This document shows, in pieces, positions 9,001 through 13,537 of a stretch of 13,537 nucleotides of DNA. This DNA comes from a virus (lineage: Duplodnaviria > Heunggongvirae > Uroviricota > Caudoviricetes). Made by a program: the position numbers. Location: IMG/VR virus record IMGVR_UViG_2703718869_000027; one strand, written 5' to 3'. Within the stretch, counting starts at the first letter, position 1. Each line of letters begins with the position of its first letter.

Positions 9001-12000
9001 AACAAGGAGCGCAGACCATGACAGCACAGATTGCAGCTTACGGGCGGCTGGTGGACGACCCGCAGGTAAAACAGACCAGCAAGGGAACAGCGATGACGCT
9101 GGCGCGTATGGCGGTATCTTTGCCATGCAGTCAGGCACAGGACGGACAGGCGACGTTATGGCTATCAGTCCTGGCATTTGGTAAGCAGGCCGACGCGCTG
9201 GCGAGACATGAAAAAGGCGGCCTTATCAGCGTGGCGGGTAACATGCAGATCAGTCAGTGGACCGGACAGAACGGAGAAACACGGCAGGGCTGGCAGGTTA
9301 TCGCTGACAGCGTAATCAGTGCCCGTTCGGCGCGTCCTGGCGGGAAGCGTGGGCAACAGGGGAAGGCGACCGAAGCACTGGAAAGAGCAAAACGACAGAC
9401 CGGACAGCAGGGAAATCAGCCACCAGCGGGAGGTGATGACCCGTTCTCTGACGATATTCCTTTCTGAATGACAGGAGCACAACATGAACCAGCAGACCAC
9501 ACAACAGGACCAGACCACACGCAGACCCACGGAGCGCCCATCATGGCGACACATGACGAAGCGGCAGCGAAAAAACCGCAGGAGGATAAACCGACTGGCT
9601 GAGTACTGGCCTGAACTGTTTGGGGCAGAGACGATAAAGCCCCTGAAAACGGGCATAATACGTGATGTGCTTGAGGACGCTAAATCACGGGAATTACCGA
9701 TTGGTCATGGCGTATTACGTGGCGCATTAACCTCATACATCCACACGACGCGATACCTGAAAGCCATTGTCGCTGGTGGCCCTCGGTATGGACTGAACGG
9801 GCAGCCTTGCGGGGAAGTGACGTCGGATGAAAAAGCCGTAGCCCGTGGGATACTGAAACAGCGACTGGAGCAGATGAAGCAGAAAAACATCCAGCAGTAA
9901 TCAGCCGGAGGTAAAGCCAGTGATAACGGACAGCGTGGCACAGAAACTTGAGGAGCGCGGTTTATGGCGACGTGCGGCGACCCGATGGTCTGAGGTTCTT
10001 CTTCACGCAGAAACAGACAGGGAACGCGAGGAAGCTGCCAGACGTCGGGCGATATGTATCATTAAATCCCGTCGTATGCCTGAGCAGTTTGTCACCTTTG
10101 GCGATGTGAAAAAGGCCGCAGACAGAACGCTGAAAGAGATGGGGATTAATCCACAGGATGAATGGCGAAATTACAGCTTCAGTGATGCAGGCGACGATTT
10201 AGCGCTATCGTGATACGCATCTCATCGCCGTATTTGCTCAATTATCGCGATTCGCTATAATCACCACCGAAAGGCCGTTGATAGTGTTCTCCTCGGGCAA
10301 CTGGAGCCCGACTGAATGAAGCCAGCCAGCGGCTTTTCGGCACTCATTCCGGTGTATCTCCCATACATCGGGATGAGTGAACGACGAAAACATCACGGTG
10401 ATTTCGTCATGCCGCGATAAGAATGCGCCTCTTTGGGCAATTGAAGCCCTCTGTACAGCGGGTTATCGCGGCAAAGTTGTGATAAAAACGCGCCTCTTTG
10501 GGCAACTGGAGCCCACTGTAAAGCGGCTTATCACAGCTGGCGGTAACGGGCGCTCATCTCCGGGCAACTGAAGCCCTCTGTACAGAGACCCGTTACGGCT
10601 GACCCTGAATGATTTCTGCCACGTGCAACTGGAGCACCCGGAGAAATCTTTCAGGGTTTTTTATTGCCCCTCCACCAGCACCACATCTGTAGCATTGATG
10701 CGTATACATTCGCCGTCAATTGCACCATTCCGGCCCTCACTGTCACGCGCAACAACAGAATGACCAGGCAGGCCATAACGCGCCACCTTTCGACGAACAT
10801 CATGACCAACGCTGTCACGCCGCTCATACACATTAACCCGCTCAAGAAGACCATCACGCACCATTGCTTCCAGTGTGCGCCTTGTTGATTCGATCTGATG
10901 CCGGTTGTTGTGTGAATCCATGCCATACAGCAGGTAAGCCACACCGGAGACATCAAACGGCGGGTTGCCAATTTCAACGCTGACCCACGCCAGATTGTCA
11001 GGAGTGAAGTAACTGAGGATCTCTTTTTTGTATTGCGTCAGTCTCATAGTGACCTTTCTTGTTGTAGGATGAATCCCTCATACAATAAGCCATAAGGCAA
11101 ATTTTGAAAGGACAGAATCGGCGGGGTACAGATGATACGTGATGACAAGGCTGAAGCGCTGGAAGCACAAGGGTTATGCGATGGGTTGCGGCAATATGAG
11201 GCAAATATGAATATTCAAATTGTTGTGTTGTGAGGTACGCAAGATGAAAAAAATTGATTCTTTACGAATAAGTAAAGTAGCTATTATATCAGTATCTTTA
11301 TTATTTCTTAGCGCGTGTTCTACAAATAATATTGAGAATATGCCGAGAGATGCGCGTGTAAAATTTGCTCTAATGAGGGCTTATTCAGATAACAAGTTTG
11401 ATAATTCAACAGTTATCGGCGAAGTGTTAGGATTGAGTTGCGCCAGACAACTTGGAAAAACATTAGTAACACCATTGCCAGGGGGAAGCGCTATTGCTAC
11501 ATCCTCTGAGGGCGACATTACTTCTGAGTCGGATGCAATACAGGACATGCGATATAAAGCCGCAATGATGGGAGGTGATGCCATAGTGAACGTTGTATGT
11601 AAATCAGGTGGTGTTGACTGGATTCATAACTGTTGGTCAACTGTTAAGTGCGTTGGTGATGTAATAAAAAAATAACAGTTGCCATACTGAAGGTATTGAT
11701 TAATACATGGAAACTGCAATTACGACGTGTGATTGCAGCTTACCGTTAGCTACCCCTGTTACAATTGCCCTCTTCCATCACAGCAAAATGCTACCCCCTT
11801 CACAGCCCCCCCCTCGGAAGCCCCTCCGATGGGGTGAAAAATCCCTGAAAAAATGCGCAGAAAATTGCGCAAAAAACTGCGCAAATCGATCATAAAACCG
11901 ATCACAAAATCGATCATAAAACCGATCACACAGACCAGCAGAGAAAAGCCAGGTATGACGCGGCTTGCAGGGGGGAAAGGCCACCGGAAAAAGTGCGCAT

Positions 12001-13537
12001 TTTTCTCAAAAACGAAACGCAACAGGAAGCGCAAAACGAAACCGATACGCGATGATCGAAAAAGCGCGCAAATTTACCGGATTCGGGTAAGCAATTTTGC
12101 CTGATTTGGGCAAAATACGGTGTCGCCGTAACAGTGACATTGACACCAAAACAGTGACACACAGGAGGCCCGATGACCGAACGTTCACCAACAGAGATAA
12201 TTCACGGGATTATTGAAGAGCAGGAGGAACGCGAGTTAATCCTCATGATTGAAGAGCAGAGAGAACGCCAGCACAAACAGGAGGCCACGCAGCCGGACAG
12301 CGTGACCGCTAAAAATTATGCGCGTGTTGTTGCGGAAGTGATGCGCCGTGAAGGCACTGAACTGAACGGGCAGGACTGCTTGGTTATCCGTACCAGGGTG
12401 CTTGGTATGCTGGCGGCAAGGAGGCGGCAGGAGCAGCGACAGAACGCGGCCCCGTACCAGTGGCATAAGCCGGAGCGGTTACGGCGGTAACTCACTGAGA
12501 TTAAAGCAAAGCTCAAATCTGAGATGGCTACATCCCTCACTTCTGAGGACTGTTATTCACAAACTACGAAATTTTCGTAGTTTAACTTTCATCCAGTGCA
12601 TCCCTGAATTACGGGTATATAACCACAGCCATTACGAGGTGATTGTTGATGCGTGATATTCAGCAGGTTCTGGAACGCTGGGGAGCGTGGGCGGCAAATA
12701 ATCGCGAGAATGTGACCTGGTCATCCGTTGCCGCAGGATTTAAGGGGATTATTCCGGCAAAGATAACATCACGCTCACAGTGCTGTGACGATGATGCGAT
12801 GGTGATATGCGGGTGCATAGCCCGTCTTTACCGGAACAATCGCGATCTGCATGACTTGCTGGTTGATTATTACGTGTTGGGGGAGACGTTCATGGCGCTG
12901 GCACGGAAACATGGGTGCTCTGACACCTGTATAGGTAAACGCCTTCACAAAGCGGAGGGGGTTGTTGAAGGCATGTTGATGATGCTGGATGTGAAGCTGG
13001 AGATGGATCGGTATGTTGAGCGCGATTCAGTGACGACATAACGCGCATAAAAAAACCGCAGCCATGAGGAAACTGCGGTGGAGAAATACGGCTTGCCAAT
13101 CAATCATGAAAAACGTAATCGCCTGATAATTATGCCACGAGACAAAGGACGGTGCACCCTGAATGGTCATAATGACCACTCAGACCATCAAGGCAACCAT
13201 AACGAACATCGTTACAGTTGGAGCTTTTACCCCGTTGGGGGAAAAGGCGCATACCTGAATCATCATTATGGTGATCAAGGGTATGTAAAGCCCACCAGCC
13301 TGATTAAAGGTTAACCGGAAAAAGCCAGGTATGGAGGGAGTGGTTAGCCACGAACAAGCCGGACACCGCGCCAGCAAAAACCACAGATTCGTGCTTTTCT
13401 TCAGCCAGGGTAAGAACGCCACGGGGATTAATCCGTCGTCTGGTGGAATCAGTCGGCAGCATGACGAACAGGCCGCGCAGCCGGACACCGCCAGCAGAAG
13501 GTATTATGATTTTCGTAATACCTTTAGCAAAGCGTGA

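Follow-up and report, generated by a model that had tools for sequence, protein, structure and literature searches.

What keeps a strictly periodic array of short repeats in place on a genomic island whose neighbouring genes are exchanged from copy to copy? The question is raised by IMG/VR record IMGVR_UViG_2703718869_000027, a stretch of 13,537 nucleotides (the window, throughout this text) in which a non-coding block of ~290 bp (11772..12063, + strand) lies upstream of a Q antiterminator gene and carries TGCGCA hexamers and GATC sites at 12-bp intervals. On balance, and with restrained confidence, we favour the reading that this block is a pac-site mimic on a satellite island, recruiting the terminase of Shiga toxin (Stx)-converting phages.

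An exact 12-bp array

The array comprises TGCGCA at 11854, 11866 and 11878 and GATC at 11888, 11900, 11912 and 11924, with a step of exactly 12 bp, and these three TGCGCA and four GATC units span 11848-11931. This agrees with an earlier note on this DNA, which had counted seven units; a further unit on the left, GAAAAATCCCTG (type 1, 11836..11847), makes it an array of eight units of three types, the others being AAAAANTGCGCA (type 2, 11848..11883) and AAYCGATCAYAA (type 3, 11884..11931). In the window these occur once, three times and four times, respectively, and all lie on the + strand, as do the parts of the block described below. Each type 3 unit contains a Dam site, and reads CGATCA on the + strand and TGATCG on the minus strand. 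Tandem Repeats Finder reported period 12 within the array (scores 55 and 71) and, at 11883-11930, perfect repetition of a 24-bp double unit (score 96). GATC is scarce over the window as a whole, with 29 sites observed versus 47 expected from shuffles, and the interval 11854-12057 holds five of these 29 along with four of the five TGCGCA.

To the right of this first array (array A) is an inter-array spacer (11932..11975), constant at 41 nt up to a run of G, which holds an imperfect inverted repeat AAGCC(A)...GGCTT, the word ATGACGCGG that is also found in phage terS, and the run itself (G5/G6). Among near-identical copies of the block the run (11970-11975) is either G5 or G6, and in other lineages it is followed by AAAGG or ATAGAC. 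Array B (11988..12025) has a single AAAAAGTGCGCA unit in the window but two to three units in other copies. The interval 11854-12070 also contains a fourth TGCGCA (11994), the direct repeat AAAACGAAAC, and a fifth GATC, which sits inside a + strand TGATCG at 12053-12058.

Homology to the terS linker of Stx phages

Stx phages of the 933W type have, in the linker segment of their small terminase gene (terS), a homologue of the block that aligns with it collinearly. Nothing was found in phage and plasmid collections with default search thresholds; the phage link emerged from blastn with a shorter query and a relaxed E-value limit, under which 228 phage records matched, mostly Stx-converting phages. 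The block matched PhiR5_2 (E = 2e-7) and PhiR12_3 (E = 3e-6) over ~150-175 bp, and its GATC units matched more than 200 Stx-phage records over 35 bp (88.6% identity, E = 5e-3). All of the phage matches fall in the gene directly upstream of terL, which is annotated as small terminase (phrog_370, E = 5e-125).

The order of elements in 933W terS is AAAAATGGGC, four GATC units at a 12-bp step, a ~45-bp spacer with ATGACGCGG, TGTGCA/TCTGAA/TGCGCA units and then GAAACGAAACG. PhiR12_3 terS has TGCGCA-type units and a TCCCCC unit in place of the GATC units, and AAAAACTCCCCC as the counterpart of the island's type 1 unit; type 2 units are likewise found in phage terS. The collinearity is made plain by the terS of the JNEC-KY173 prophage and the island copy of PS2Canimalfeces12. 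Exact words common to block and terS are 17-25 nt long, against a shuffle mean of 8.7 and a shuffle maximum of 12-15. They include GATCATAAAACCGATCA, a 17-nt match between the type 3 units and 933W terS, and the non-repeat word AAACGAAACGCAACAG, which comes after the array B unit and matches PhiR12_3 and prophage terS exactly over 16-17 nt. The right end of the terS-derived segment, AAAACGAAACCGATACGCG plus TGATCGA (12033..12059), has an 18-nt exact match in terS of Klebsiella phage RothC, where the shared nucleotides encode ETKPIRGS.

Translated, the block matches TerS residues 36-78, 77-89 and 81-122, each in a different frame. Since the terS-like translation is split in this way over three frames, the fragment is frame-broken and confined to the TerS linker; as read from these matches, the block holds a ~225-bp, start-less copy of terS codons ~36-122.

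Conservation and constraint among island copies

The block (11772-12063) was found in 119-125 of 5426 complete Escherichia coli genomes, always on the chromosome and mostly in Shiga toxin-producing E. coli (STEC). Pattern scans of viral sequences added one further E. coli copy and otherwise gave chance matches, and those of genome contigs gave matches in unrelated taxa only. On either side the block is bordered by variable cargo: a lipoprotein, PerC paralogues or either of two restriction-modification (R-M) systems on the left, and a small open reading frame (ORF), YeeE/YedE or PemK on the right. Although both flanks are exchanged, the block keeps its position upstream of Q in the copies examined. 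No reading frame is conserved between copies.

What does vary within the block varies by whole 12-bp units. Type 1 is present once or twice, type 2 two to three times and type 3 three to four times (the third type 3 unit has decayed in one copy), while all three types occur in constant order in related copies. The 12-bp register is exact in 12 of 12 related copies, and for this reason we do not regard the array as a product of chance. The spacer length of 41 nt, like the register, is held in all copies at up to ~23% divergence. Polymorphic columns among the island copies number two of 30 in the hexamer cores, two of 20 in the A-tracts, six of seven at free positions and 15 of 41 in the adjoining spacer; the cores are thus less polymorphic than the spacer (Fisher p = 0.004), in a comparison of nine related sequences whose columns are not independent events. 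With somewhat more confidence than doubt, we read this pattern as that of a block kept as a cis-acting DNA site on the island.

The slot to the left of the block (11048-11772 in the window) is a cargo hotspot across copies, and is occupied by a lipoprotein-like gene, by one to three PerC paralogues, by Dcm with a type II restriction enzyme, or by another cytosine methyltransferase system. In one copy a PemK/MazF toxin gene lies to the right of the block.

The phage linker as a candidate pac site

The packaging reading takes the terS linker to be a pac site in the phage, and several features of the phage gene suggest that the motif matters as DNA. The linker is the hypervariable stretch of otherwise near-identical TerS proteins. 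It follows an N-terminal helix-turn-helix (HTH)-like domain, and is built of 12-bp units that each combine an A-tract with a TGATC(G/A) or TGCGCA hexamer. Between lineages whose genes are 96-100% identical, terS length differs by exactly 12 bp (804 versus 792 bp). Within PhiR12_3 terS (2466-2660 of the stretch examined), the TGCGCA hexamer occurs in each of the three codon phases (cTG CGC Aaa, agT GCG CAg and TGC GCA), which argues for selection on the DNA rather than on the protein. The TerS of RothC, which is 35% identical, has hexamer repeats TGCGAA/TTCGCA at the same position, and in IMG/VR the phage-type array lies precisely between the N and C parts of TerS in 40 of 42 occurrences. In a separate record, IMGVR_UViG_2703718811_000003 (4536-4904), terS consists of its N-terminal part, the GATC array and no more than 18 residues of the C-terminal part, and may be truncated or mosaic.

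A second line of evidence comes from phage P1, whose pac site consists of TGATCA/G hexamers with Dam sites inside pacA, and where synonymous recoding of these cuts packaging ~9-fold (PMC10028697). The TerS proteins of 933W and PhiR12_3 match the P1 PacA family (phrog_1711) over residues 5-94 (E = 3e-5 and 1.6e-4, respectively) and PacA reciprocally matches the TerS family (phrog_370) over residues 3-104 (E = 1.9e-4), although the pairwise match is weak (BLASTP E = 0.009, common motif ...NTAR(R/T)(Y/R)(I/L)(K/R)). By these profile matches, TerS of the 933W type shares its N-terminal DNA-recognition region with PacA. In both terS and pacA the HTH-like region precedes the TGATC(A/G) hexamers, which appear in the protein as ...DH... 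repeats. Pac sites within terS are moreover the rule for P22 and its relatives (PMC9611059). On these parallels, it is probably in the terS linker that 933W-type phages have their pac site. We found no mapped pac site of these phages in the literature or in sequence records, nor a pac annotation in the deposited records of 933W-type phages that we examined, and the proposal therefore rests on analogy and on the link to PacA.

How closely does the island block itself resemble P1 pac, as the earlier note had proposed? The hexamer is the same, TGATC(A/G) including its Dam site, and is clustered in fours, the minus strand having four copies (11887-11928) and the + strand one; further, the hexamers of the putative helper lie inside the gene of the pac-recognition subunit, as they do in pacA. 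The layout, however, differs. In P1, clusters of four and three hexamers (HEX4 and HEX3), all on one strand and irregularly spaced (7/12/15 and 12/11 bp), flank an IHF site and mapped cut sites, whereas the island units follow a strict 12-bp step with phased A-tracts, TGCGCA and TCCCTG hexamers are interleaved, the second cluster is made of TGCGCA units, and the lone additional TGATCG (12053-12058) lies on the opposite strand from the other four. The island array also lies outside any gene. There is no IHF consensus within the block, no similarity between block and P1 pac at the DNA level, and no PacA-type protein encoded by the island; it is the putative helper TerS that has the related N-terminal region. 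The differing layout led us to reject direct similarity to P1 pac. What survives of the earlier proposal is the clustering of TGATC(A/G) and a packaging role, the latter now supported through terS homology and the TerS-PacA link instead of through a direct match to P1.

The GATC sites themselves need careful reading. PhiR12_3 has TGCGCA units without GATC at the same place, and GATC is therefore not a universal need of such sites. By analogy with P1, cleavage at the four GATC units might be gated by Dam methylation, but this is speculative and, again because of PhiR12_3, could not be general.

A satellite-type carrier

By its gene content, the window is an integrative satellite island of the phage-inducible chromosomal island (PICI)/P4 type, and in O145:H28 and O103:H2 strains it is inserted between yicC and dinD. 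A tyrosine integrase gene with Arm-DNA-binding and phage integrase domains (61..1323, + strand) stands at the left end, and the island also encodes an AlpA-type regulator, a Rha-type regulator, SSB, a ProQ/FinO protein and PerC. The replication module (6462..8527) consists of a P4/D5-type primase-helicase gene (6462..8285, + strand) and, immediately 3' of it, ten exact TGTTCACC iterons on both strands (8299..8527), which are P4 alpha-type octamers. A single IHF-consensus site, TATCAATATGTTA (8336-8348), lies within the iteron region, and we take 8299-8527 to be, probably, the replication origin of the island. The repeat block was also considered as a P4-type origin (ori/crr) and was ruled out in that role, since all ten iterons lie at 8299-8527 and none in the block. 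Rfam matches to isrK RNA (5215..5294, 51.8 bits) and C4 antisense RNA (5343..5430, 81.3 bits) identify 5215-5430 as an RNA immunity region of the P4/P1 type. A 527-aa ORF (4075-5658) that overlaps isrK and C4 is probably spurious, and no such gene is annotated in the RefSeq record of an identical island. No terminase or capsid genes were found on the island by Pfam and PHROG scans or by a check for terS.

In the right part of the island, the repeat block is preceded by a lipoprotein-like cargo gene and followed by a phage-type ORF of 105 aa and then by the Q antiterminator gene. A direct repeat, AACAGTGACA, occurs twice, 20 bp apart, at 12131-12160, just 5' of the Shine-Dalgarno sequence of the 105-aa ORF, and is absent from copies whose downstream gene differs.

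This Q gene (PF06530; 12643..13041, + strand) forms a second link to the Stx-phage helper group, as it is 88-90% identical at the protein level and 91% at the DNA level to Q of Stx1- and Stx2-converting phages. The homology does not extend beyond the gene, and so there is no PR'/qut region behind the island Q, which might therefore act in trans on resident Stx prophages. The distribution of the putative helper gene points in the same direction: 933W-type terS is present in 424 of 5426 genomes, and the island occurs in 11 of 60 sampled terS carriers where ~1 would be expected (p ~ 7e-8), a co-occurrence that is confounded by STEC phylogeny.

Among known satellites, the closest parallel to the carrier is with Gram-negative PICIs of the EcCICFT073 type, which likewise measure 10-15 kb, lack capsid genes and read rightward from an integrase at the left end, with AlpA, PerC accessory genes and an origin that directly follows the primase/rep gene on its 3' side (PMC6092414). 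The window has the integrase, AlpA, pri/rep followed by an origin, unidirectional genes and the C4 and isrK RNAs, without matches to structural or terminase genes; it departs from the known members, which use lambda-type cos and Rpp, in having no cosN-like sequence (no match to lambda-type cosN in the island was closer than two mismatches, and those were no commoner than chance) and in carrying instead an array of pac type, akin to that of a headful Stx phage, together with an Stx-phage-type Q gene. The primase/origin module (window 6918-8528) is 77% identical in DNA to vB_KppS-Ant (LR881103, 16.5 kb). In its record that element is an induced prophage; it resembles a capsid-forming PICI and has its own terminase, capsid, portal, integrase and primase.

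Mimicry of a helper's packaging signal has precedent in P4 cos, SaPIbov5, EfCIV583 and the PICI-like element (PLE) of Vibrio cholerae, in each of which a satellite without terminase carries a short helper-like packaging sequence. Transduction of PLE depends on 14 identical bp inside an 89-bp region of similarity (PMC11417361); here, exact words of 17-25 bp lie within ~200 collinear bp. The present case, a putative mimic, differs from these in that the source is inside the coding sequence of the helper terS, the signal is a periodic multi-unit array and the putative helper is an Stx phage. As for pac phages proper, P22, Sf6 and SPP1 likewise have the site within or at the small terminase gene, but the sequences are unrelated, and P22 pac is a single asymmetric 22-bp site.

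Weighing other explanations

Could the block instead be an inert relic, that is, a decaying terS fragment left by recombination with an Stx-type prophage and persisting as an anchor between cargo slots? It is frame-broken and has no start codon, its copy number drifts by slippage, and the uptake of a phage Q gene implies that recombination with these phages does occur. Yet the fragment has been trimmed to the repeat linker with no flanking terS sequence left, divergence falls on its free positions and spacer and spares the cores and A-tracts, register and spacer length are kept even in the most divergent copies, and the block stays put while both of its flanks are replaced, all of which leaves a relic rather doubtful. 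The homology and constraint that support a pac mimic would equally suit a decoy, with the block titrating or misdirecting the helper terminase and so lowering Stx-phage production as a form of interference or defence. Satellites commonly interfere with helper packaging (PMC11417361), and the neighbouring slot holds defence-type cargo (the R-M systems and PemK toxin). A single-copy chromosomal site would, however, be a poor sink unless the island replicates, and once it replicated, an island that binds TerS would be packaged in any case. The block could thus serve both ends, but a decoy as its explanation seems to us unlikely.

The earlier note had also raised a methylation-sensitive switch, and a Dam/SeqA-controlled operator or sequestration site for the downstream ORF and Q would fit the constant position of the block upstream of Q. 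Four GATC sites at 12-bp spacing would make a good SeqA target when hemimethylated. But there is no promoter-like site within 11700-12170, in or beside the array; the block has no OxyR motif of the kind expected of a Dam phase-switch operator (agn43, gtr, opvAB or pap type; the Lrp motif was not searched for); and the gene just downstream differs between copies (small ORF, YeeE/YedE or toxin). The promoter switch was discarded on the first two of these grounds, and a Dam/SeqA site, which would leave the TGCGCA and TCCCTG units and the terS homology unexplained, is in our judgement very improbable. We give as little credence to a gene product, whether a small basic repeat protein of 83 aa (ORF 11853-12104) or a structured or sponge RNA. 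The ORF does start with ATG and is called by the Prokaryotic Genome Annotation Pipeline (PGAP) in some genomes (as hypothetical in RefSeq), but no frame is intact in all copies, one copy lacks the start codon, and there are no Pfam or PHROG matches; a coding repeat was accordingly rejected. For an RNA speak the folding z-scores of -3.0 (+ strand) and -3.3 (minus strand) and the TGCGCA pairs followed by T-runs, which resemble minus-strand terminators. Against it, scores near -3 on both strands are expected from self-complementary hexamer repeats, no conserved promoter was seen on either strand, and no Rfam family matches the block, so that a known RNA family was set aside as well.

A packaging model and its limits

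If the block is a pac-site mimic, events might run as follows. Once an Stx phage, resident or infecting, has entered late development, the phage TerS would bind the island at array A (six to eight units) and array B (one to three units) and TerL would then be recruited, with the first cut falling in or near the 41-nt spacer. The replicated island would then be packaged headful-wise, as a multimer, into phage capsids. The spacer (11932..11975) is our candidate for the region of initial cutting by analogy with P1 and SPP1, in the latter of which multiple contact points flank the cut (PMC9611059). E. coli PICIs are known to be packaged as multimers in full-size capsids (PMC6092414). An attractive idea is that the 12-bp phasing places the DNA over successive HTH domains of a TerS ring, although the ring-wrapping model is itself disputed (PMC9611059).

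The homology to terS, the collinearity, the periodic core constraint, the satellite-type carrier and the co-occurrence with the phage are observations; that the terS segment serves as the phage pac, that TerS binds and the terminase cuts at the block, and that the island is transferred are what we infer from them. Several points weigh against the pac-mimic reading, beyond the kinship of the sequences in the constraint test, the phylogenetic confounding of the co-occurrence, the weak pairwise TerS-PacA match and the lack of a mapped 933W-type pac. The block is only ~69% identical to any sequenced terS, and a present-day TerS might not recognise it. To fill a ~60-kb headful, an island of 13.5 kb would have to be packaged as a multimer. 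Finally, excision, replication and transfer of the island are without direct evidence.

Implications for Stx phages and their hosts

Stx phages carry the toxin genes of enterohaemorrhagic E. coli, and the late transcription and packaging of these phages decide toxin release and spread. We found no description of an Stx-phage satellite in the literature. If the block works as a pac mimic, ~2% of complete E. coli genomes, mostly STEC, would hold an island that rides on Stx phages; the 933W-type pac would be located and tied to the P1 PacA system; and the island's Q933-type antiterminator would be a candidate modifier of Stx expression. Compared with known satellite mimicry, this putative mimic is unusual in its origin from terS coding sequence, its strictly periodic array of several unit types, its probable Stx-phage helper and the Stx-phage-type Q alongside. 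How small-terminase rings read DNA is a further question, and the periodic array is a natural substrate for addressing it.

More tentatively, islands of the yicC-dinD type could be dedicated satellites of Stx phages. Such an island would combine a terS-derived pac mimic, with unit types of more than one TerS specificity, multimer packaging by a headful terminase, and a Q933-type antiterminator acting in trans on the helper's late promoter; we consider this possible but hold it loosely. Were it true, the 933W-type pac would be a P1-like, possibly Dam-gated, hexamer array inside terS, and the islands would affect both the spread of their cargo (PerC regulators and defence systems) and the timing or level of Stx and phage production.

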